From assembly GCA_029258835.1 (NCBI GenBank), contig JAPDJY010000035.1, positions 32,001 to 96,000 on the forward strand: a DNA stretch of 64,000 nt, read 5' to 3'. Numbering within the stretch: position 1 is the stretch's first letter; each line of letters opens with the position of its first letter. Source of the DNA: Thermoproteota archaeon (GTDB lineage: Archaea > Asgardarchaeota > Jordiarchaeia > Jordiarchaeales > Freyrarchaeaceae). Positions 34,334 to 47,014 of the stretch are shown piece after piece. The notes beneath the pieces are model-generated. The model was not told the origin of the DNA. It saw only the letters and a list, made by a program, of their open reading frames with translations, and did no database searches. The translations under genes were made by a program, and so were the position numbers.

Positions 34334-36988
34334 CTACTTAACACTACGGCGAAGCAGAAACTTATCAATAATAGCGTCAATATTCACCGCCTTCCCGTGG
34401 TCACTCTTAGCAGGATCAACTCCGTCTTCCCCATACCTAAACTGGATGATTTCCCCAGACGGCGTCCTCACAGTTCCATCATACTCCACCTTCACATCCT
34501 GAAGCGCATTTATCAACCTCCTCTGCATATACCCGCTTGTACTGGTCCTCACAGCAGTATCCACCAGCCCTTCCCTGCCACCCATAGCATGAAAGAAAAA
34601 CTCTATCGGGTCCAACCCCTTCCGGTAACTGGAAGCCACAAACCCCCTCGACTTAGCGCTCAAGTCACCCTTCTTAAAGTGTGGGAGAGTCCTCCCCCTA
34701 TAACCTCTATGTATACGCTCACCCCTAACAGACTGCTGCCCTATGCAGGCAGCCATCATCGCAAGATTTAAGGGGTTACCCCTAGCCCCAGTCAAAGCCA
34801 TAATCACAGCATGATTATCCGAACCCAAATACTCACTTGCAACCTCGCCAGCCTTATCCCTCACATTAGCAAGCTCACGCATAATCAACATTTCAAGGCT
34901 TTCCTCAATGGTCCTCCCCGGCAACGCCTCCAATTCACCCCGCCTATACGTCTCAATCAACTCATTAACCTTACGCTCCCCCTCCTCCAAGATCTCTTTT
35001 ATCCGGTAAGTTGCCTCCTTAGGTATCTCCACGTCGTTAAGTCCCAACGTGAAACCTTTCTTCGTAATAAAACGAATCAGCATACGTGTCACCGAATCCA
35101 AAAACTCCCTCGCCGCATCAGTCCCAAACTCCTTCACAATCTTATGAAGCAAACTCTCCGGGACGCCAGCCCCAAAAGCAGCTTTATCAATCACACCCTT
35201 AATAAGAACGCCGTCGACAACTACCACATACGCATCATAGGGACACTCTTCCCCCAAGCAAGTATCACACTGCTTACACGCCTTAGACTTAAACCTTGCA
35301 TTAAGGCCCTTCGGCAAAGTCAAACTGAAGATCTGCTTACCCGTCCAGAGCTCCTCAGGCTCACTCACCGTTGGAGGAGGAAGGGAAGTTATACCTGCTG
35401 CAAGCGCCAGCTCACACGCCTCCTCCTTACTGAGGAGGGTTTGCTCTCTGGTTAAAAGATAGGCGGCAGAAATGAAGTCTTGAATCCCCCCTATAATTGG
35501 ACCACCATATCTAGGACTTAAAATATGCTCCTGAACCTTCATTAAAATATGAGCTTCAACACGCGCCTCCTCTGACTGGGGAACATGAAGATTCATCTCG
35601 TCACCATCAAAATCTGCGTTGTATGGTGGGCAAACGCAGAGGTTAAGTCTAAATGTTTTGTATGGCATTACCCGGACTTGGTGAGCCATGATGCTCATTC
35701 TGTGTAGGGAGGGTTGCCTGTTAAATAGGACTATGTCGCCGTCGTTTAGGTGGCGTTCGACTATGCTGCCTATTTCTATGGTTTCGGCTATTTTGCTCCT
35801 GTTTTTTACGAAACGTAGGTCAATGCGTCTGCCATCTGCTCGGATAATGTAGTTAGCTCCTGGGTGTTCGTCGGGTCCTCGCATTACCAGCTCTTTCATG
35901 TCTTCGATGTTTAGTTCTGTTACGCGTTCGGGTATTGTTAGGATCTTTGCGACTTCGATGGGGACGCCTACCTCGTTTATTCCGAGATTTGGGTCTGGAG
36001 ATATGACTGTTCTGGCTGAGAAGTCGACGCGTTTGCCTGAAAGGTTGCTTCTGAACCGTCCTTCTTTGCCTTTTAGTCTTTGGGTTAGTGTTCTTAGTGC
36101 TCGTCCTGAGCGGTGTCGGGCTGGTGGGATCCCTGAAATTTCATTGTCAAAGTATGTTGTTACGTGGTATTGAAGTAGTTCCCAAAGGTCTTCTACGATT
36201 AGTTGGGGGGCTCCTGCTTCTATGTTTTCTCTCAGCCGCTGATTGATCCTAATTATGTCGACGAGTTTATGTGTTAGGTCGTCTTCCGATCGGACGCCTG
36301 ATTCGAGTGTGATGCTTGGTCTAACGCATACGGGTGGGACTGGAAGGACTGTGAGGACCATCCATTCTGGGCGGGCGAAGGAGGGATTTATGCCTAGTAG
36401 TTTGCAGTCGTTGTCTGGTACGCGTTCGCATCGTTCCCTTACGTCGCTTGGGGTGAGCCTGATTGAGCCTATTTCTGTTTCTTCGTAGAATGTGGTTGGC
36501 TTTTCCAGCCTTATTTTGCGTTGGATTTCTCCGCAGTGGGGGCATGTTGATGTTCTGGATGCCCGCCGGAATACTTCTTCGGCTATTTCATCGCTCAGCC
36601 TTCCTGTTTCTTGCTCGTAGCGTTCCATTTCTGCTAGGAAGAATTCTATTTCGTCTTCAGGTAGTAGAAGGCGGGAGCAACGTCTGCAGGTGGCTCTTAA
36701 GACTTTATGGAGGACTTTGACGAAGCCTACGTGGATGACTGGACGGACGAGTTCTATATGTCCGAAGTGGCCTATGCATTCGCCGACTGGGTTGCCGCAT
36801 AGTTTGCATCGTCGTCCGGGTTCTACCGTGCCTAGACGCTCGTCCATGAGGCCTGTTTCGATCGGGGTGCCGTCTTCATCGTAGGTGTCGGGGGTGATTA
36901 TCCGCGTAGCGGACATGCGTCTTATTTCGTCTGGAGAGAGGACGCTGAATCTTATTGAACTGATTCTCTTAACAAACCGGAACGCCAA
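34334..36988 (-). CDS. rpoA1: DNA-directed RNA polymerase subunit A' (Rpo1N)
   Basis: GHFGHIEL, GKRVDFSARTV, NRQPSLH, YNADFDGDEMN, TAVRT.TSGY.QRRL. Confidence 0.98.
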   Translation of the reverse strand: MAFRFVKRISSIRFSVLSPDEIRRMSATRIITPDTYDEDGTPIETGLMDERLGTVEPGRRCKLCGNPVGECIGHFGHIELVRPVIHVGFVKVLHKVLRATCRRCSRLLLPEDEIEFFLAEMERYEQETGRLSDEIAEEVFRRASRTSTCPHCGEIQRKIRLEKPTTFYEETEIGSIRLTPSDVRERCERVPDNDCKLLGINPSFARPEWMVLTVLPVPPVCVRPSITLESGVRSEDDLTHKLVDIIRINQRLRENIEAGAPQLIVEDLWELLQYHVTTYFDNEISGIPPARHRSGRALRTLTQRLKGKEGRFRSNLSGKRVDFSARTVISPDPNLGINEVGVPIEVAKILTIPERVTELNIEDMKELVMRGPDEHPGANYIIRADGRRIDLRFVKNRSKIAETIEIGSIVERHLNDGDIVLFNRQPSLHRMSIMAHQVRVMPYKTFRLNLCVCPPYNADFDGDEMNLHVPQSEEARVEAHILMKVQEHILSPRYGGPIIGGIQDFISAAYLLTREQTLLSKEEACELALAAGITSLPPPTVSEPEELWTGKQIFSLTLPKGLNARFKSKACKQCDTCLGEECPYDAYVVVVDGVLIKGVIDKAAFGAGVPESLLHKIVKEFGTDAAREFLDSVTRMLIRFITKKGFTLGLNDVEIPKEATYRIKEILEEGERKVNELIETYRRGELEALPGRTIEESLEMLIMRELANVRDKAGEVASEYLGSDNHAVIMALTGARGNPLNLAMMAACIGQQSVRGERIHRGYRGRTLPHFKKGDLSAKSRGFVASSYRKGLDPIEFFFHAMGGREGLVDTAVRTSTSGYMQRRLINALQDVKVEYDGTVRTPSGEIIQFRYGEDGVDPAKSDHGKAVNIDAIIDKFLLRRSVK

Positions 36989-37144: not shown

Positions 37145-38122
37145 TTAGGAGAGTTTGCTTTGAATTTTTTCGAGGGGGAGTACTTGCCTTGGTTCGTAGA
37201 CGACTATTCCTTGGGCTAGTTGCCGTAGATGTGGTATTATTTTTAGGAATTCGTCTTTGTGTATTACGGTGTTTAGGGCGTACCATCCTTCTTCCCCAGC
37301 GAGGGGGGATATGGTTGGCTTCTTCAGGGCTGGTAGGACTTTGAGTATTTTATCTAGGTTTTCGCCTTTTACGTTCATGAAGAGGTGTAGCCTTTCTCTT
37401 GCGTCGACAGCGCCTTCGATGAGAGTCATTACGTCTTTTATTTTTTCCTTTTTCCATGGGTGGGTTAGGGCGTCTTTGTTGGCTATTAGTACTGCTTGGG
37501 ATTGGCATATTTCTTCTATTACTTTTAGGTTATTGGATAGGAGGGTTGTTCCCGTTTCCGTGTTGTCGATTATGGCTTCGGCGTCCTCGGGCGGTTTGGC
37601 TTCGGTGGCTCCGAAGGACAGGATTATTTTCACGTTTGGGTTTTCTCCATACCTGTACCATGGAGTTATGACTTCGGGGAGCGTTCTATGGAAGCGTTTT
37701 TGGTATTCATGGTTTTCTAGTATGTGACGGAGTGTGATGTTTATATATTCTGTGGCAATTCGTATCGGTTTCCCTGCGTCTAAAAAGGATTTTATGAGGT
37801 CTGATAGGGAGTTTATTTGTGTCCAATGGCTTGGGACTGCTAGCACGATCTTAACTTTACCGTATGTGAGGTTTGATAGGACTTCCACGTCTGCTGATGT
37901 TTCTCTTACCCAGTCCAGTCCGGTTATTCCTATATCGTGGGCGCCCGCCTCAACGAGGTTTGGGATCTCTTGCGGTCTAAGTACTTTCAGGTTTATTTCG
38001 GGGTCGTTGATCCACGGCCGGTAGGAGCGCTCGCCTCCTTTTACTTCATAGCCAGCTTGCCTTAGGAGGCGTAACGTTGCCTCTTGCAGTGAACCTTTAG
38101 GGATTACGAAGTTTAGCTTCAA
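37145..38122 (-). CDS. hisG: ATP phosphoribosyltransferase (long form)
   Basis: PKGSL, RPQEIP..V..G..DIGITGLD, IATEY, SFGATE, ETGTTL..N.L, PTISPL. Confidence 0.93.
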   Translation of the reverse strand: MKLNFVIPKGSLQEATLRLLRQAGYEVKGGERSYRPWINDPEINLKVLRPQEIPNLVEAGAHDIGITGLDWVRETSADVEVLSNLTYGKVKIVLAVPSHWTQINSLSDLIKSFLDAGKPIRIATEYINITLRHILENHEYQKRFHRTLPEVITPWYRYGENPNVKIILSFGATEAKPPEDAEAIIDNTETGTTLLSNNLKVIEEICQSQAVLIANKDALTHPWKKEKIKDVMTLIEGAVDARERLHLFMNVKGENLDKILKVLPALKKPTISPLAGEEGWYALNTVIHKDEFLKIIPHLRQLAQGIVVYEPRQVLPLEKIQSKLS

Positions 38123-38219
38123 GGGGTTCACCTTTCCTAGGGCTTTCAAGGGGGGGGTAGCAACGATTAAAATTTAAATGTTTGTAAAGGATAGTATGAA
38201 GTAAACGGTTTGAGGTGTT

Positions 38220-38827: not shown

Positions 38828-39844
38828 TTGAAGCATGGAATTTGCTGGGTTGGGGTGACGGATGTGGAGGGGTTTTCTCAGAGGCTTTTCGAGTTGATTG
38901 TGGATGCTTTAAGTGTTGAGAGGGGGGTAAGGGAGCTTTTAGAGGATTGCTTGTGGTTTACAGATAAGCTTGTTTCGGGTACGAGTGGCTTTGAAAGGGA
39001 GGGATACGTTGCTGTTAGGAGGGCTTTAATGCACTGGATTAAGAGCCTTAGCACCCCCTTTGATGAGAGAGGAGATTTAGAGTTTTTGGGCGAGAAAAAG
39101 GAGTGGGAAAAAGCGGTGGAGGCGTTTAGGAGGGCGGGGGATCAGAGAGGCGCGTATCGTGCTTTGTTAGTCATGACTGTTAGGAGAGGTGAAAGGTATG
39201 CCTTGGCCGGCGACTTGAACACAGCATGTAATGTAATGGCTGAAGCAGAGGAAATAGCTAAGAAAGCAGGGTTAAGTGCTAAACAGCTGATGCTTTTAAG
39301 GGCTAAACATCTCAGGCTCTTAGCGCTAAAGAAAGAAGTGGAAGGAGACTTCTTAGGTGTGGGGGAATCGTACTTAGAAATTGCACATATAATGGAAAAG
39401 TTAGGGTTGAATTGGAGGGCGGATAAGGTTGCAGCGCTCAGATTCCTGTCACGCCATGCTATGGCTGATGGGATATGGGGTAACGTGGCGAGGTACCAGA
39501 TGGAGATAAGTGAGTTAATGAGGGAGATGGGGGATGTGCAGGGAGCTATGGCTGCTGAGGCAAGGGGGCTGATGGCGATGGCGATTGACGCCGAAGGGAA
39601 AGGGCAGTGGGTTAGGGCGGGGGAGTGCCATAAAAGGGCCGAGGAGGTTTTATGTAAAATGGGAAGTAGGATAAATGCGCTTTATGCCAGGTTGAACGCA
39701 TACGTGTGCTTTAGTAAGGGAAAAGGTGAAAGGCCTCCTTGGATGGACGAGGCTGAAGAGCTCATTAGAAGGGCTAAACGTGAGGAGGATGTAAGGGTGC
39801 TTGAGAGGGAAGTGAAAAGATTGCTTAGAGAGATTGAAGGGTGA
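38828..39844 (+). CDS. Alpha-solenoid (TPR-like) repeat protein
   Basis: Repeated G.W..A...(Y/H)..A.E....G helical-hairpin pattern. Confidence 0.6.
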   Translation: MKHGICWVGVTDVEGFSQRLFELIVDALSVERGVRELLEDCLWFTDKLVSGTSGFEREGYVAVRRALMHWIKSLSTPFDERGDLEFLGEKKEWEKAVEAFRRAGDQRGAYRALLVMTVRRGERYALAGDLNTACNVMAEAEEIAKKAGLSAKQLMLLRAKHLRLLALKKEVEGDFLGVGESYLEIAHIMEKLGLNWRADKVAALRFLSRHAMADGIWGNVARYQMEISELMREMGDVQGAMAAEARGLMAMAIDAEGKGQWVRAGECHKRAEEVLCKMGSRINALYARLNAYVCFSKGKGERPPWMDEAEELIRRAKREEDVRVLEREVKRLLREIEG

Positions 39845-40496
39845 TTAAGCCGGAGCGGAAGAGCCTACGATATTTTTCAAGAAGAAGGGCGGTCCTTGGC
39901 CCTGCCTTGACGTTTTCTACTGACAGGAGATCCTGTGGGTAATCTATGTCCGTTTTGATCCTTGGGGAAGCATATGTTTCCACGTGTACACCTTTAGCTC
40001 TTGCCCTAAGGATGTGCCTTTTGAAGCTGTCTTCTCCAAAGTCGGGAAGAATGGCTGTGGGAGGCTTTAAAAGCAAGGCATTTGTCCCTCCGCTTTTAGA
40101 TTCGGCAAGAACCACAACCTCTTCCTCGTTTTCGCCTTTTTCAATTATGGCGTTAATGTCGCTTACTTCTATGAAGGGTATGTCAGCTGGGAGTACAAGA
40201 ACTGCTTTGGCCCCTAATTTAATACAGAGGAGGATGCCATGTGCAATGGCATTGTTTAAACTATGGGGGGGAGGCTCAACGATTACGTTGATCTTTTTAA
40301 ATGGAAGCGTGAGGTCACGGTCTGGTGTAACTACGTGGATTCCATCAAAGGATCCGGTAGCCACTGCCACATCGATCACGTCTAGTAACATTGCAAGGCT
40401 CAGCTTCTGTCTTTCAGGATGGGGCAGAGAAGGGGAGAGCCTAGACTTTGCCTTTCCTACGCCCTTAAAAGGGATGATTAAGTGAAGGTTCTTCAT
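39825..40496 (-). CDS. cofC: Phospholactate/PEP guanylyltransferase
   Basis: IPFK....KSRLS, AML.DV, LNNA, LPADIP, GGTNAL, FGEDSF..H, DID.P.DL. Confidence 0.93.
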   Translation of the reverse strand: MKNLHLIIPFKGVGKAKSRLSPSLPHPERQKLSLAMLLDVIDVAVATGSFDGIHVVTPDRDLTLPFKKINVIVEPPPHSLNNAIAHGILLCIKLGAKAVLVLPADIPFIEVSDINAIIEKGENEEEVVVLAESKSGGTNALLLKPPTAILPDFGEDSFKRHILRARAKGVHVETYASPRIKTDIDYPQDLLSVENVKAGPRTALLLEKYRRLFRSGLITLQSL

Positions 40497-40508
40497 TTAA
40501 ATCCACCA

Positions 40509-41282
40509 TTAATTGCTGAGAGCTTCCTCCACTTTAAGTGCAATACGGCCGACGAGTGTTGGGTCGTGGATTGCCGCGCGGGCAATAGACACGGCATCAG
40601 CCCCGGAATTTAGCATTCTAATTGCACTTTCGAAGTCTCGGACTGAATTGTTTCCAATAAGGAAGACATCTACGTTTTCGGATAGCTTCCTTATTAGCCT
40701 TAAGTCTCCGCATGCTTCTCCGGGTTTCATTGCGTCGATGTGAATTGCGTCGACCCCAGCAGCCTCCGCTATTTTGGCCACATGCAAGTCGTCTACGACG
40801 TTTCCTCTCCACTTCAAGATCACGTTGAGGTTAAATGAGTCCTTTAAATGTTTAATCCATTCTGACAGCTCGTCCAGTCTTCCTAGGAGGGCTTGCCCAG
40901 CACCTACGGATAGCATTTCAGGCTGGCGGCAATGCGCGTTTATTTCTAAAACTGTGGCTCCACTTTGCGACACGGATTCGCCGGCAAAAATGATGCCTTT
41001 CATGGTCGCTGCCCTAACATTGACGGCGACAGGGGTTCCATTTATCGATGCTTTCCTTACTTCTCCTTTTAAATAGTCAGTAAGAAAGTGAAGGTCTATC
41101 TCAAACTCCCTTCGTCCTCTTTGACTTATTTTCCTGCTGGCAGTAAGGGTTTCCATGTCGAAGTTTAGCCCACCTAATGTGACCATGCCCGCTCCTGCCT
41201 TAGATGCTTTTGAGCAAAAATCGCCATTACAGATTCCAGCCATAGCTGCTAGAATTACGCGACTTCTTAATTTAAGCTTCAT
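40509..41282 (-). CDS. DUS/NifR3-related archaeal FMN TIM-barrel (MJ0144-like)
   Basis: LAAMAGI, GRREF, EINAHCRQPEM..GAGQALL, IHIDAM, IGNNSV, GADAVS.AR. Confidence 0.85.
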   Translation of the reverse strand: MKLKLRSRVILAAMAGICNGDFCSKASKAGAGMVTLGGLNFDMETLTASRKISQRGRREFEIDLHFLTDYLKGEVRKASINGTPVAVNVRAATMKGIIFAGESVSQSGATVLEINAHCRQPEMLSVGAGQALLGRLDELSEWIKHLKDSFNLNVILKWRGNVVDDLHVAKIAEAAGVDAIHIDAMKPGEACGDLRLIRKLSENVDVFLIGNNSVRDFESAIRMLNSGADAVSIARAAIHDPTLVGRIALKVEEALSN

Positions 41283-42211
41283 CGTATCAGCCCCATAATT
41301 TCTGATGCCAAACGTATCGTGTCTTCACGGGTTACCATTAAAGTGTCCGTTACGTAGGTTGCAATACCGATGGAATTTACTGCTTTTTTGAGTGGTGCGT
41401 CTCGTTTATCAAAGACCAACGTGTCTATTAAGTTTTTATAAAAGAGAGCAACGCCGAAAGGTGATACTTCCATCTTAAGACCGCGCATTAGCTTAGCTGC
41501 TGGGCCACTCACAGCCTGTCCGCCGACTATTGGGCTGACAGCGATCTTCTTACAGTTGAGCCTTCTAATGGTGTCTTTTATTCCTCGCACTGCTAATATT
41601 GGCCCTATGCTTGTGATAGGGTTGCTGGGGCCAAATATGATTGCATCCGATGAAGTTAATGTTTCAATCACTTCGGGAGGGGGGTTAGCTTTCTCTGCGC
41701 CTCGATATTCGATGCCAAACACATCCGGCTCTCCCCGGTGCTTAACCCAGAACTCTTGAAAGGAAATAACCCCTAAGTCGGTTCTTACGTAGGTTTGAAC
41801 GCGATCATCGCTCATGGGTAGAACTCTTGCCTTAACGCCTAGCTGCTTACAAATTAGTTTTGTAATGGTAGACAAGGTCATTCCCTTCCTAAGAAGGAAA
41901 GTCCTCAAGATGTGGGTTGCTAGGTCACGGTCGCCTAAAGAGAACCATGTTTCTAATCCGTATTTTTCCATCATTTCGAGACAGTTGAAAGTGTCGCCTT
42001 TTATCCCCCAAAACTTTTCTTTGTCAAGTAAACCTGCTATTAGATAAACTGTGCTGTCTAGGTCCGGACTTATGTGGAGGCCGTGGAATTCTATGTCGTC
42101 GCCCGTGTTTACTATAATTGCAATTTCGTCTTGCGGGAGGATTTCGAGGAAACCTTCCAGGAGCTTTAATCCGCCTGTTCCCCCTGTAAGGAGAGAGATC
42201 AACTTGATCAC
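41279..42211 (-). CDS. cofD: 2-phospho-L-lactate transferase
   Basis: GGTGG.K, VNTGDD, SPDLD, LGDRDLATH, FQEFWV, GPSNPITSIGP, VSGPA. Confidence 0.95.
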   Translation of the reverse strand: MIKLISLLTGGTGGLKLLEGFLEILPQDEIAIIVNTGDDIEFHGLHISPDLDSTVYLIAGLLDKEKFWGIKGDTFNCLEMMEKYGLETWFSLGDRDLATHILRTFLLRKGMTLSTITKLICKQLGVKARVLPMSDDRVQTYVRTDLGVISFQEFWVKHRGEPDVFGIEYRGAEKANPPPEVIETLTSSDAIIFGPSNPITSIGPILAVRGIKDTIRRLNCKKIAVSPIVGGQAVSGPAAKLMRGLKMEVSPFGVALFYKNLIDTLVFDKRDAPLKKAVNSIGIATYVTDTLMVTREDTIRLASEIMGLIR

Positions 42212-42960
42212 CTGAAGAGGTCTCTTTCAGGAGGTATTACTAGGTCCTTGCCGCTTCCTTCTCCTTCAATGTACTTATACCCTCTTACAATGACTGCAGG
42301 GATCCCTTCGTCCGCCTGTCCCATAACCAGCTCGGCCGCCGATGCAATTTCATCTGCAACGGCCACAATGGTTGAACGTAAAGTGTAGCCAAAAAGATCC
42401 CGGTCTCCACGTCGATCCCAAAGTGGCTTCATACCGGCTACACCTAACGCTACATTTACTGCTCCCTCCCTGAAGGGGCGGCCGTGGGTGTCTGAAATTA
42501 TTACAGCTACGTTGGCGCCCGTAAGTTTCAAAACAGTGTTTCTGATCTTTCTTGCAGACTCGTCAGGGTCTGAGGGAAGCAACGTAACATGGCCTCCACC
42601 GGATACGTTAGACTCGTCTACTCCAGAGTTAGCACAGATGAAACCGTGCCGTGTCTCTGTGATTATAACATGACGCATTTTAACTATTCGTTTGGCTTCT
42701 CTTAAGATTACTTCAACTAACTGAGGGGGTTTATTCACTTGCCTACTTACTTCCACAGCAAAAGGTGAGGGGGTCACCTGAGATAAGTTAATTACTTGCC
42801 CCTCTGACTTAGACACTATAGACTGCGCGACTACAAGTACATCGCCGTCTTTTATTTGCAATCCCTGTCTTTTTGCAGCTTCAACAATCAACTTTCCTAT
42901 ATCATCGCCATGCTTTACTAGTGGAATACCCTTAATTCCGATTATTTCCACCCGGTCCAT
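42208..42960 (-). CDS. cofE: Coenzyme F420-0:gamma-glutamyl ligase
   Basis: GIP.V..GDD, IVSKSEG, ANSGVDESN, LLP.DPD.SA, DTHGRPFR.G, ADEIASAA.LVMG; start at the ATG of MDRVE. Confidence 0.95.
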   Translation of the reverse strand: MDRVEIIGIKGIPLVKHGDDIGKLIVEAAKRQGLQIKDGDVLVVAQSIVSKSEGQVINLSQVTPSPFAVEVSRQVNKPPQLVEVILREAKRIVKMRHVIITETRHGFICANSGVDESNVSGGGHVTLLPSDPDESARKIRNTVLKLTGANVAVIISDTHGRPFREGAVNVALGVAGMKPLWDRRGDRDLFGYTLRSTIVAVADEIASAAELVMGQADEGIPAVIVRGYKYIEGEGSGKDLVIPPERDLFR

Positions 42961-43115
42961 TTTCGAGAAACCTCTTCTTAACATTGCAGTTCCTCGGATC
43001 ACTCCCTTATTTGTCTCCTTAATTTTAAGAATGGGATTCAAAAAAGATGAAATTATTTCATGCGGCATTAATTTAAAACTGAGAAATGAAATTTTTATCC
43101 TGAGTTTCATATCAT

Positions 43116-43466
43116 CTATTCTTCAGGCTGTAATTCACCTTTAACTATTTTTGATATGATTTCCTTTTGAGCTTCTTTAACGGCTCCAAGAAAATTGAAG
43201 CCGCGCGTGTCAGCGCCTAGTTCATCAATGGCATCGCCAAAACTATGTGTATTTACTAGCGATATGACAATGTCTGTTATGTTATACCGCTTACCTTTAA
43301 AACGGACAAATATTTTACGAGACTCCCAGTCAACTTCAGCACCATAGAGTTTCCTCTGGAGATTTATAGCTTCAGCAATTGTGAGATTTGGATTTGAAGA
43401 CATAAGTTCATCAACAGAGGGGATCTTAACACCTTCGATGGAAAGTAAAGAATGTTGGATGAACAT
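43116..43466 (-). CDS. Hypothetical protein
   Basis: Open frame with protein-like composition; start uncertain. Confidence 0.55.
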   Translation of the reverse strand: MFIQHSLLSIEGVKIPSVDELMSSNPNLTIAEAINLQRKLYGAEVDWESRKIFVRFKGKRYNITDIVISLVNTHSFGDAIDELGADTRGFNFLGAVKEAQKEIISKIVKGELQPEE

Positions 43467-43632
43467 GCTTATAAGCCAGCACCGGTTAAAACGCCCTTTC
43501 CATACATTAGCCTGCAAGGAACTAACCCCTTTTTAACAACGCCTATCCATGTTTCTAATAAATTTCCAAGGGAAGAAAATATAAAGATTAAGGTGACGTT
43601 TTCGTTTAACTCTACCTCAAAAGTAAACACGA

Positions 43633-44084: not shown

Positions 44085-45230
44085 ATGGCTTATGAGGAAG
44101 AAATGATTGCCGCGAAACCTCTCGTACTAGATAATGGCACAGGATTAACAAAGAACGGATTTGCAGGGGAAGATCAACCCCGTTCAGTTTGGCCTACATG
44201 TATAGGATATCCAAAGTACACTTCAATAATGACCGATGTAGAACACCACACAAGGGAATACTACATAGGCGAGGAAGCTCTAAACCTTAGAGGTGTGCTG
44301 AGGCTTGTGTATCCTATCGAACACGGGATAGTTTCCGACTGGGATGCTATGGAGAAAATATGGCACTATACATTCTTCAATGATTTACGTGTCGACCCAT
44401 CGGAGCACCCAGTGCTTCTAACTGAGCCACCGTTAAACCCTAGGGAAAACAGGGAGAAAATGGCAGAGATAATGTTTGAAACATTTAATGTACCGGCGAT
44501 GTATGTTGCAATGCAAGCTGTCCTATCCCTCTACGCGTCCGGCAGAACTACTGGGCTTGTAGTCGACTCGGGTGATGGGGTCACGCACATAGTACCCATC
44601 TACGAGGGATTTGCTCTAACGCATGCAATCACCAGAATAGACCTAGCAGGGAGAGACATAACAGAATATTTGAGGAGGCTTCTAAGGCAGCGTGGGTACA
44701 GCTTTGTTTCAACAGCTGAAAGAGAAATTGTTAGGGACATTAAGGAGAAGCTCTGTTATGTGGCTTTAGACCCAGAAAAAGAGTTGAAGCTTGCAGAGAA
44801 AGTTTCAGGAATCGAGAAAACATATGTACTCCCTGATGGAGAAACAATTACAGTAGGTGCTGAAAGGTTCCTTGCTCCAGAGGTTTACTTTAACCCAGGA
44901 GTTATTGGGCTCGATGCCCCACCACTAGATGAGGTCATAGTGGACGCTGTCAGGAAATGCGACGTTGACTTAAGAAGAGAACTCTACGGAAACATAGTAC
45001 TTTCAGGCGGCTCGACAATGTTCCCAGGATTAAAGGAAAGATTACACAAGGAGTTATCAGAACTGGTTCCAGAAAATGTCGAAATTAAAATAATTGCTCC
45101 CCCAGAAAGACACTATAGTGTATGGATCGGCGGGTCAATCCTGGCGTCACTAAGAACATTCCAGAAAATGTGGGTTACAAGGAAGGAGTATGAGGAAGGC
45201 GGAAGCGCCGTCATACACAGATGCTTCTGA
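44085..45230 (+). CDS. Actin (Asgard lokiactin type)
   Basis: [96 protein letters not shown], terminal HRCF. Confidence 0.98.
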
Positions 45231-45394: not shown

Positions 45395-47014
45395 TTGAAA
45401 AAGCTCCTAGAAGTTAATACCATTAGAAAAGATAGACGGAAGGTAAAGCTTAGATTTGCATTATGCTACCCGAATACGTATATGGTAGGCATGTCATCTT
45501 TAGGCATACGTCTATTATATGCCCTTATAAATTTAAGAGAAGATGTAGCTTGTGAAAGATTTTTTTACGAGCCGGGGAAGGTGCCTCGAAGCGTTGAGTC
45601 AGGGTTTAAGTTATCTGAGTTTGAGGTAATAGGGGTTTCCCTTCAATTTGAGGAGGACTATGTAAGGTTCATCGAAATGATCCTCAATTCAGGGGTTCCA
45701 TTGAAAAGGTGGGAACGGGGAGAGAGGGACCCTATAGTCGTCGCTGGGGGGATCTGTGCTGTGGAAAACCCACAGCCATTATCAGATTTCGTTGACGTCT
45801 TCGTAATTGGAGATGGAGAAGCACTCATAGACCGGATATTGGACATTTGCATCGAAGAACGAGATAGAGAAACACGTATCGAAGCACTCTCAAACTTGGA
45901 AGGATTTTATGTTCCAGCTTATACGGAGGGGAAGGTTAAGAGAGTTTGGTGTAAAAACATTAATGAAATCTTTCATCCAACCAGTCAGGTGCTACCAGCA
46001 CGCGACAGTTCACCTGTTATGCCTGTTTTTGGTAGGTCTATTCTTCTTGAAGTTGCTAGAGGATGTGAAAAGGGCTGTAGATTTTGCTTAATAGGATTCT
46101 GTAATAGACCTAAACGCATTAGAAGCGGAAGAGTCCTTGAGGAAATTGTAGAGAGGGGAGTGAAGGAGAGTGCCACTAAGAAGGTAACTCTTATAGCGCC
46201 ATCCCTTTCAGAACACCCAAACATAACGGAATTGTGCTGGAACATGGTAAATTCCGGATTAGAAATATCGTTGCCTTCATTAAGCATAGACGTTATATCT
46301 GATGAGCTACTTAACGCATTGGTCAAAGGAGGACAAAGAACCGTAACCATAGCCCCCGAAACGGGAACAGAGGAGCTGCGAAAAAAGATTAATAAGCCAT
46401 TTTCCGATGATGAAATAATTTCTGCAGCTGACACCATATTAGAACAAAAATTGAATTTAAAAATGTATTTTATAGTTGGTTTGCCGTTTGAGAAGGAGGA
46501 GGACGTCGAAGGAATAGTGAAGATTGTTAGTAGGATTTCTAAATTAAGAAGGGGGACAAGTGTAAAAGTAAGTGTAAATCCGTTCGTGCCTAAACCTCAT
46601 ACGCCATTTGCATGGGCGCCTCAGCAGCCTCAAATGGTCCTTAAAGAAAAAATGAAGAAAGTACGTTCATTCTTAAGAAAAGAATCCGTTGTTTTTGAGG
46701 GAATGGACCCGCGGAAGGCAGCTATTGAGGCGATTTTATCCTTAGGAGGAAGAGAGTTAGGGGAAATAATAGAATTAGCAACGCTTTATGGAGGAGGATT
46801 CGGTGCATGGAGGCGGGCTTTAAGAGAAAAAACTACTAATTTAGAGGACTTGAGCAAGTTTAGGTCTATGGATGCAGAACAACCATGGGAAGTAATCGAC
46901 GTAGGAGTTAGCAGAAAATTTTTAATTAAGGAGTGGTATAAGGCGGTTGATGGTGTTCAAACATCGCCTTATAGTTGCTGTGATCAATGCGGGGTATGTT
47001 ACACTATAGACTGA
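45395..47014 (+). CDS. Radical SAM protein (YgiQ-like, large family)
   Basis: YPNTY.VGMSSLG, ENP.P, RGC..GCRFC, APETGTE, FVPKPHTPF. Confidence 0.88.
   Translation: MKKLLEVNTIRKDRRKVKLRFALCYPNTYMVGMSSLGIRLLYALINLREDVACERFFYEPGKVPRSVESGFKLSEFEVIGVSLQFEEDYVRFIEMILNSGVPLKRWERGERDPIVVAGGICAVENPQPLSDFVDVFVIGDGEALIDRILDICIEERDRETRIEALSNLEGFYVPAYTEGKVKRVWCKNINEIFHPTSQVLPARDSSPVMPVFGRSILLEVARGCEKGCRFCLIGFCNRPKRIRSGRVLEEIVERGVKESATKKVTLIAPSLSEHPNITELCWNMVNSGLEISLPSLSIDVISDELLNALVKGGQRTVTIAPETGTEELRKKINKPFSDDEIISAADTILEQKLNLKMYFIVGLPFEKEEDVEGIVKIVSRISKLRRGTSVKVSVNPFVPKPHTPFAWAPQQPQMVLKEKMKKVRSFLRKESVVFEGMDPRKAAIEAILSLGGRELGEIIELATLYGGGFGAWRRALREKTTNLEDLSKFRSMDAEQPWEVIDVGVSRKFLIKEWYKAVDGVQTSPYSCCDQCGVCYTID

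Follow-up and report, generated by a model that had tools for sequence, protein, structure and literature searches.

A Dus-like TIM-barrel gene embedded in an Asgard F420 operon is a candidate for the archaeal F420 side-chain reductase

Gene organization at the cofE-cofD-X-cofC locus

The window analyzed here, a stretch of 64,000 nucleotides from a Jordiarchaeales genome (Asgardarchaeota), carries four successive minus-strand genes, which the ORF listing places in the order cofE, cofD, X and cofC. The first, cofE (42208..42960), encodes an F420-0:gamma-glutamyl ligase matching TIGR01916 at 1e-92. Its reading frame stays open to 43110, but because the family match begins only at residue 54, translation probably begins at M51 (42960), the start also chosen in an earlier sequence-only reading of this DNA. 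That reading had also described this CofE as lacking a nitroreductase domain, and the profile search agrees, returning F420_ligase as its single Pfam domain. The adjoining cofD (41279..42211, GTG start) encodes the 2-phospho-L-lactate (or enolpyruvyl) transferase and exceeds the TIGR01819 cut-off at 5.5e-103. Next lies X (40509..41282, ATG start), encoding a 257-residue FMN-type TIM barrel of the MJ0144 or “archaeal Dus” family. The last gene, cofC (39825..40496), encodes the guanylyltransferase that activates 2-phospholactate or PEP and likewise exceeds its cut-off (TIGR03552, 1.6e-46). Profile searches located cofG and cofH in the same genome.

The four genes are tightly packed. Overlaps of 4 nt join cofE to cofD (42208-42211) and cofD to X (41279-41282), the X start codon lying over the cofD stop, and a 12-nt minus-strand spacer (40497..40508; tggtggatttaa) containing a Shine-Dalgarno-like GGTGGA lies between the stop codon of X and the ATG of cofC. 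The ORF coordinates thus confirm both overlaps and the gap as originally described. This layout is not a product of chance, because cofD directly precedes X in 12/12 fetched Asgard loci, spanning Jord-, Frey-, Baldr-, Borr- and Sifarchaea with X identities as low as 44%. One unclassified archaeon likewise has cofD immediately before X.

Family, motifs and fold of X

X aligns with positions 1-226 of the 231-position TIGR00736 profile (nifR3_rel_arch, the MJ0144 family) at 216.7 bits against a cut-off of 218.7, and its close Asgard relatives pass that cut-off with 220-243 bits. The family, represented by UniProt Q57608 in PMC9775027, has the same NxHC(K/R) and HxD motifs and the same single barrel of ~250 residues, with no sequence-level difference from X; methanogen members add a Cys-rich domain, marker 9. 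The two motifs appear in X as N115-A-H117-C118-R119-Q and H181-I-D183. In an alignment of 38 homologues N88, R90, E113, H117, C118, Q120, E122, K157, R159, H181, D183, N211, N212, S232 and R235 are invariant. The AF2 model (pLDDT 96.8) is one TIM barrel ending in one helix, with no extra domain. Motif and model agree with the initial description of X as an MJ0144-like, FMN-type barrel carrying NAHCRQ without a C-terminal tRNA domain.

Foldseek placed DusB, DHOD-B, DPD, OYE and FabK among the best fold matches to the model. The tRNA-dihydrouridine synthases (DusA/B/C and Dus1-4; PF01207, COG0042) are the closest of these in sequence and fold, with a Pfam Dus match of 1.4e-16 (61 bits; cut-off 20.4) and an E-value of 6e-14 to E. 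coli DusB 6ei9, and they share with X the FMN-type barrel and its Cys, Lys-x-Arg and His; the Dus catalytic set is kept as C118, K157, R159 and H181. X nonetheless differs from Dus enzymes in several respects. Identity is ~20%, NxGCP has become NxHCR around the cysteine (Gly to His, Pro to Arg), and HxR has become HxD (Arg to Asp). The C-terminal helical domain that holds tRNA is absent from the 257-residue X and from its model, and Dus targets of 305-340 residues align over the barrel alone.

Class 1 DHOD, the DPD subunit PreA, and OYE/FabK have the barrel in common with X at TM-scores of 0.66-0.75. In their chemistry, hydride from the flavin together with an acid residue reduces a C=C bond conjugated to a carbonyl or carboxylate. 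Substrate-binding residues differ from those of X, however, and X scores far under the class 1 DHOD cut-offs (NF005574, 48 vs 269 bits; TIGR01037, 42 vs 270 bits).

Distribution of X follows cofD

Profiles for X, cofD and the FbiB-C-type nitroreductase were run against 251 evenly sampled Asgard genomes. X occurred in 50 genomes, every one of which also carried cofD, against a cofD background of 166/251. In at least 44 of these 50, the X match follows that of cofD at a distance of ~50-100 nt, both on one strand. A second survey, of 201 Halobacteriota genomes, found X in 134, again all with cofD, so that all 184 X-positive genomes sampled (50 Asgard and 134 Halobacteriota) are cofD carriers. The sequence-only reading had suggested that the MJ0144 family would track the F420 genes, and it does so with respect to cofD; among the genomes searched the family is not common in those lacking F420 genes.

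Adjacency of cofD and X recurs in three separate clades of the X tree, namely the Asgards, the Halobacteria and one methanogen group. The two genes overlap in Halobacterium salinarum, Halobacterium sp. DL1 and Halodesulfurarchaeum, and cofD lies directly upstream of X in the methanogen clade (loci L129-L132).

X and the FbiB-C-type nitroreductase exclude each other among Asgard families

Strong FbiB-C-type matches (75-176 bits) adjoin cofD or are fused to cofE in seven Asgard families (f3, f6, f7, f9, f12, f15 and f28). Across the 251 genomes no strong match of this type was found in the eight families that carry X, the best being 66 bits on a different contig; the best TIGR03553 match of the source genome is weak (E 3.5e-9). 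The anti-correlation anticipated from the sequence is thus observed, since these families have X or a cofD-adjacent nitroreductase and never both, although related genomes are not independent and the effective sample is therefore ~8 X families vs 7 nitroreductase families. The nitroreductase gene of Asgards precedes cofD and X follows it; the two have the operon in common but occupy different slots (loci L116-L121).

Some cofD carriers have neither gene. Profile searches detected neither X nor an FbiB-C-type gene in the cofD-positive Asgard families f4, f13, f14, f18, f25 and f27, nor in ~62/196 cofD-positive Halobacteriota genomes, including Archaeoglobus profundus, ANME-1, Ca. Methanohalarchaeum and Halococcoides. 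These archaea must therefore use a different route.

X in methanogen gene clusters

The genomic setting of X in methanogens, where it occurs with marker 9, CitG-like, DUF447 and DmrX genes, is a complication that lay outside the sequence-only reading. Here X is fused to marker 9, which the source-genome protein lacks. A same-strand run of X-marker-9, a CitG-like gene, DUF447 and the TIGR02700 dihydromethanopterin reductase was present in 34/65 loci (Methanosarcinales, Methanoperedens and Methanocellales), and the same run recurs in other methanogen orders and some Halobacteria. Ca. Methanohalarchaeum, which has lost X, has the arrangement cofE-cofD-CitG-like-DUF447, the latter two directly after cofD.

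Proposed role in F420 side-chain reduction

When the F420 pathway was revised in 2019, the reductase that the new scheme required was missing for archaea; this “CofX” was postulated with no gene assigned (PMC6450877). In 2024 the archaeal dehydro-F420-0 reductase was still termed “yet-unknown” (PMC10949242). Coupled to cofD, and confined to genomes with F420 genes that lack a known side-chain reductase, X is a candidate for the lactyl-forming step. We hypothesize, with a probability of roughly 0.65 and on comparative sequence evidence, that X reduces the enolpyruvyl C=C bond of the F420 side chain and so supplies its lactyl group, and that it is not a tRNA enzyme. The sequence-only reading had assigned X to an F420 step in place of tRNA modification; occurrence with cofD only and the Asgard exclusion lend support to that assignment, and the missing tRNA-binding domain and the H. 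volcanii tRNAs (see below) weaken the tRNA alternative.

Dehydro-F420-0 is the substrate we favor within this role, at somewhat less than even odds. Operon placement and the cofD-only occurrence match what would be expected of a dehydro-F420-0 reductase, and the substrate itself is readily made from PEP in vivo by the M. jannaschii CofC and CofD, as seen in yeast (PMC10949242). X would then be an ene-reductase that depends on FMN and is built on a Dus/DHOD/OYE-type TIM barrel, produced in step with CofD through the overlapping stop and start codons. CofC and CofD would convert PEP, GTP and FO to dehydro-F420-0, reduced FMN in X would donate a hydride to the terminal methylene carbon, and the invariant Cys118 would protonate C2 to give F420-0, the substrate for CofE. 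The electron donor of the stand-alone protein may be NAD(P)H or F420H2; in methanogens it is possibly ferredoxin, acting through the Cys-rich marker-9 domain.

FbiB-C and the stand-alone nitroreductase type (TIGR03553; Bashiri et al. 2019) catalyze the reaction proposed here for X, an FMN-dependent reduction of the enolpyruvyl C=C bond of dehydro-F420-0, and both kinds of gene lie in cofD operons, no Asgard family having both. The FbiB-C type has a nitroreductase fold and is encoded before cofD or fused to cofE, whereas X is a TIM barrel encoded after cofD. [quoted passage not shown]

Alternative substrates and pathways

A variant within the same pathway role, which we consider rather unlikely, is that X reduces PEP to 2-phospho-L-lactate, or EPPG to LPPG. 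CofC and CofD would then never make dehydro-F420-0, and X would replace the never-found lactate kinase “CofB”. Two X carriers, M. jannaschii and M. mazei, have CofC and CofD enzymes that work best with 2-phospholactate, and M. jannaschii CofD prefers LPPG (PMC8764529). The in vitro preferences of the M. jannaschii pair suit a reductase working ahead of CofC more than one that follows CofD. F420 operons have not yielded a gene for a lactate kinase (PMC6450877). Mutual exclusion with the FbiB-C-type reductase would be expected equally if X reduced PEP or EPPG. Graupner and White reportedly detected 2-phospholactate as a natural product in methanogens in 2001, which would suit the PEP variant. 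Methanogen extracts nevertheless form 2-phospholactate from labelled lactate and GTP, arguing for a kinase and against reduction of PEP. The in vivo formation of dehydro-F420-0 described above also counts against this variant, as does the identity of the tightly conserved partner of X, which is cofD rather than cofC: in Borr- and Sifarchaea, Halobacteria and the L129-L132 methanogens cofD and X are adjacent, but cofC is 2 kb off or elsewhere.

An extended form of this variant accommodates the methanogen clusters. The MJ0144 family would reduce PEP or EPPG and, in methanogens and many Halobacteria, would join the CitG-like and DUF447 proteins in one cofactor-building module. We regard this as unlikely, a shade more so than the PEP/EPPG variant itself. 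A Dus-like reduction of PEP or EPPG as the lactyl source is a route that nobody has proposed in print.

The marker-9, CitG-like, DUF447 and TIGR02700 setting points to methanopterin over F420. On this alternative X acts in the synthesis of methanopterin or a related pterin carrier, possibly reducing the ribofuranosyl-aminobenzene unit to its ribityl form, and its adjacency to cofD reflects a mixed cofactor operon. The pattern of co-occurrence makes this improbable. No CitG-like gene was found in H. salinarum or Halodesulfurarchaeum, both of which keep cofD-X, and MptG was also not found in H. salinarum. Conversely, A. profundus has the CitG-like gene without X, and Sulfolobus acidocaldarius, our control, has CitG-like, DUF447 and MptG genes and lacks X and cofD. 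In Asgards X lies inside the cof operon but the CitG-like, DUF447 and MptG genes are on separate contigs. X was never seen without cofD in the genomes searched, and a role in methanopterin synthesis leaves its exclusion with the F420 nitroreductase unexplained.

That X is an archaeal RNA dihydrouridine synthase in an incidental cof-operon position is very improbable: its Dus-like matches and catalytic residues, and the sequence-based grouping of the family under the name “archaeal Dus” (Kasprzak et al. 2012; PMC3674756), a label that derives from this clustering and for which no supporting experiment was found, stand against the altered motifs, a length of 257 vs ~310-340 residues without the tRNA-binding domain, a genomic context and distribution that follow the F420 genes, the presence of an X-family gene in H. 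volcanii, whose tRNAs reportedly contain no dihydrouridine (PMC2584109), and the occurrence of the family in hyperthermophiles such as M. jannaschii and A. fulgidus, where dihydrouridine is rare or absent (PMC7668247).

Implications for archaeal F420 biosynthesis

Methanogenesis relies centrally on F420, a cofactor that many groups attempt to produce in E. coli and yeast. The question of where its lactyl-phosphate comes from in archaea has stood since about 2001, and the lactate kinase suggested as the source was never found. A specific candidate of ~250 residues makes the archaeal F420 reductase question testable. If X does form the lactyl group, the “tRNA-dihydrouridine synthase” label would be corrected across hundreds of archaeal genomes and the sole supposed Dus enzyme of archaea would be removed. 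Should the cofactor-module reading hold, the CitG-like and/or DUF447 proteins, “methanopterin-linked” unknowns, would also touch F420 synthesis. A role for X in reducing dehydro-F420-0 would show clearly how two flavoenzymes of unrelated fold can serve the same step of a cofactor pathway.

The cof operon and its flanks

Four head-to-tail open reading frames on the minus strand of the window make up the arrangement cofE-cofD-X-cofC, and the order, overlaps and spacing claimed by the sequence-only reading proved real. Three of the genes are firmly identified by their profile matches: cofE (42208–43110; TIGR01916, 1e-92), which encodes the ligase domain alone, cofD (41279–42211; TIGR01819, 5e-103), and cofC (39825–40496; TIGR03552, 2e-46). 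X (40509–41282) encodes a 257-aa protein. Overlaps of 4 nt join cofE to cofD and cofD to X, and the 12-nt spacer between X and cofC includes GGTGGA. Because the family match of CofE begins only at residue 54 of its frame, translation likely starts at M51 (position 42960). The same genome also carries cofG and cofH, and a profile search of it returned no strong match to the C-terminal reductase of FbiB.

Two frames without a Pfam match flank the operon. One, of 338 aa on the plus strand (38828–39844), runs towards cofC and shares 20 nt with its 3' end; the other, of 133 aa on the minus strand (43116–43517), lies on the opposite flank. A full-length actin homologue (44085–45230, plus strand; Pfam Actin, 470 bits) sits about 1 kb from the operon, as expected in an Asgard archaeon. 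Ordinary neighbours are a radical SAM protein with a Radical_SAM_N2 domain (45395–47014, plus strand), HisG (37145–38149, minus strand) and an RNA polymerase Rpb1-like large subunit (34334–36988, minus strand).

Family and fold of X

X scores 216.7 bits against TIGR00736, the MJ0144 family, where the cut-off is 218.7, and weakly against Dus, DHOD, PreA and FabK models. Its closest homologues are from Jordarchaeales (70% identity) and Freyarchaeota (55%). An AlphaFold model built with 38 homologues in the alignment is a single (beta/alpha)8 barrel (pLDDT 96.8) that ends at its last helix with no further domain. The nearest solved folds, at 13–22% identity, are E. coli DusB, DHOD-B, DusC, human Dus2, dihydropyrimidine dehydrogenase, OYE ene-reductases and FabK; each of these uses FMN to reduce a C=C bond adjacent to a carbonyl.

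Among the 38 homologues C118, K157, R159 and H181 are invariant, a catalytic set shared with Dus, while R90, H117, Q120, E122, D183, N211 and N212 are among the invariants specific to the X family. Kasprzak et al. (2012) described an "archaeal Dus" cluster with the same motif changes as X, NxHC[K/R] and HxD (PMC3674756), and later Dus papers use MJ0144 (Q57608) to represent it (PMC9775027). No experiment on any MJ0144-family member was found in the literature.

X accompanies cofD and excludes the FbiB-type reductase in Asgards

Scanning one genome for each prokaryotic species for the neighbourhood of X gave 80 loci, 12 of them from Asgards (Jord-, Frey-, Baldr-, Borr- and Sif-archaea). cofD directly precedes X in all 12 and in one unclassified archaeon, usually in the order cofE-cofD-X-cofC. 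Among 251 evenly sampled Asgard genomes, 50 have X at 117 bits or more; cofD is present in every one of these, versus 166 of the 251 as a whole. For at least 44 of the 50, cofD comes first and the X match follows some 50–100 nt on.

The FbiB C-terminal model was searched against the same 251 genomes and gave bimodal scores. Strong matches (75–176 bits) are genes of ~205–230 aa immediately upstream of cofD, or, in family f9, the C-terminal half of ~470-aa CofE-nitroreductase fusions that also abut cofD. They occur in families f3, f6, f9, f12, f15 and f28, and in f7 in exactly its eight cofD-positive genomes. None was found in the eight X-carrying families (f1, f2, f5, f8, f10, f16, f21 and f24), so no cofD-carrying Asgard family has both X and the nitroreductase. 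The two share an operon but differ in their position within it. This comparison had been proposed with an anti-correlation in mind, and exclusion is what emerged at the level of Asgard families.

Six cofD-carrying families (f4, f13, f14, f18, f25 and f27) have neither gene, and no third conserved reductase adjoining cofD was recognised among them. In family f14 a conserved ~305-aa frame that matches neither Pfam nor NCBIfam models immediately precedes cofD in the same orientation (L102:5949–6866, minus; L112:868–1782, plus; L113:5964–6899, minus; L115:1722–2645, plus), and its product might carry out the same step in a third way.

X in Halobacteriota

Family counts cover the Asgards and Halobacteriota, the phylum of Methanosarcina (201 genomes); Methanobacteriota, Thermoproteota and Thermoplasmatota lie outside the samples. 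X is present in 134 of the 201 genomes, all cofD-positive, and cofD in 196; a strong FbiB C-terminal match is present in none. About one third of the cofD-positive genomes lack both X and the nitroreductase. On a tree of the barrel, X tracks taxonomy at roughly one copy per genome, and adjacency to cofD appears in three separate clades.

Adjacent or overlapping cofD and X genes were seen in roughly two dozen GC-rich genomes, among them those of Halobacterium salinarum, Halobacterium sp. DL1 and Halodesulfurarchaeum. Long open frames there raised the possibility of a cofD-X fusion, which was rejected as the frame lengths differ and the genes overlap in different frames. Natural fusions of X to a Cof protein were also absent among the longer proteins searched, which is weak evidence. 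Archaeoglobus fulgidus (G426) has a stand-alone X (340 bits) away from cofD; in A. profundus (G343), which has cofD and a CitG-like gene, X was not found at E 1e-10.

Predicted substrate and alternatives

The phylogenetic profile, in which X occurs only with cofD in the genomes sampled and, among Asgard families, in exclusion with the nitroreductase, supports the proposal that X is a reductase of the F420 pathway, a function that stays a prediction. We put the probability that its substrate is dehydro-F420-0 at about 0.40. Reduction of PEP or EPPG, giving 2-phospholactate or LPPG, is a serious alternative, ranked lower because X is constantly paired with cofD and not with cofC. CofC and CofD of M. 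jannaschii and M. mazei favour 2-phospholactate and LPPG in assays, and published assays find CofC unable to discriminate (PMC8764529); the M. jannaschii pair nevertheless yields dehydro-F420-0 from PEP in yeast (PMC10949242). We found no paper since 2021 that assigns the archaeal reductase step (CofX, DF420 or PEP reductase).

A role in methanopterin metabolism is what the methanogen neighbourhoods point to. The X of Methanosarcinales, Methanoperedens, Methanocellales and other methanogens carries a fused "methanogenesis marker 9" domain, and downstream of it lie a CitG-like gene, DUF447 and a gene for a TIGR02700 dihydromethanopterin reductase (DmrX). The marker 9 domain has eight conserved cysteines in two [FW]CC-x5-C-type motifs (P0033, P0050, P0073 and P0091, residues ~262–370, alignment A1); these look like a metal or iron-sulfur site, and the domain might pass electrons to the flavin. 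One methanogen clade (L129–L132) has cofD, X-marker 9, CitG-like, DUF447 and DmrX in a row on one strand, a mixed cofactor "super-operon", and cofD-X-CitG-like-DUF447 occurs in some Halobacteria. Ca. Methanohalarchaeum, which lacks X, shows cofE-cofD-CitG-like-DUF447; Halococcoides, also X-less, shows cofD-CitG-like-DUF447. Besides L129–L132, these arrangements were seen at loci L093, L095, L084 and L085.

The genes come apart elsewhere. H. salinarum and Halodesulfurarchaeum keep cofD-X with no CitG-like gene (H. salinarum also lacks MptG), while S. acidocaldarius has the CitG-like gene, DUF447 and MptG and lacks both X and cofD. With A. profundus, this double dissociation indicates that X goes with cofD and not with the pterin-type genes. 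The genome from which the window comes has its CitG-like gene, DUF447 and MptG on contigs other than that of the cof operon. F420 specificity of CitG-like and DUF447 was rejected, since S. acidocaldarius carries both without cofD; no papers linking DUF447 to methanopterin were found.

The Dus catalytic set would also suit tRNA dihydrouridine synthesis, against which stand the missing helical RNA-binding domain in the model, the match of H. volcanii to TIGR00736 (E 1e-25 or better) when its tRNAs are reported to lack dihydrouridine (Grosjean et al. 2008; PMC2584109), and the occurrence of the X family in hyperthermophiles, where dihydrouridine is rare or absent (PMC7668247).

As an F420-pathway reductase, X would be one solution and not the archaeal one, given the cofD-positive Halobacteriota and the six Asgard families that have neither X nor the nitroreductase. 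The contrast between A. fulgidus and A. profundus, within one genus, lends itself to a comparison of F420 side-chain chemistry.
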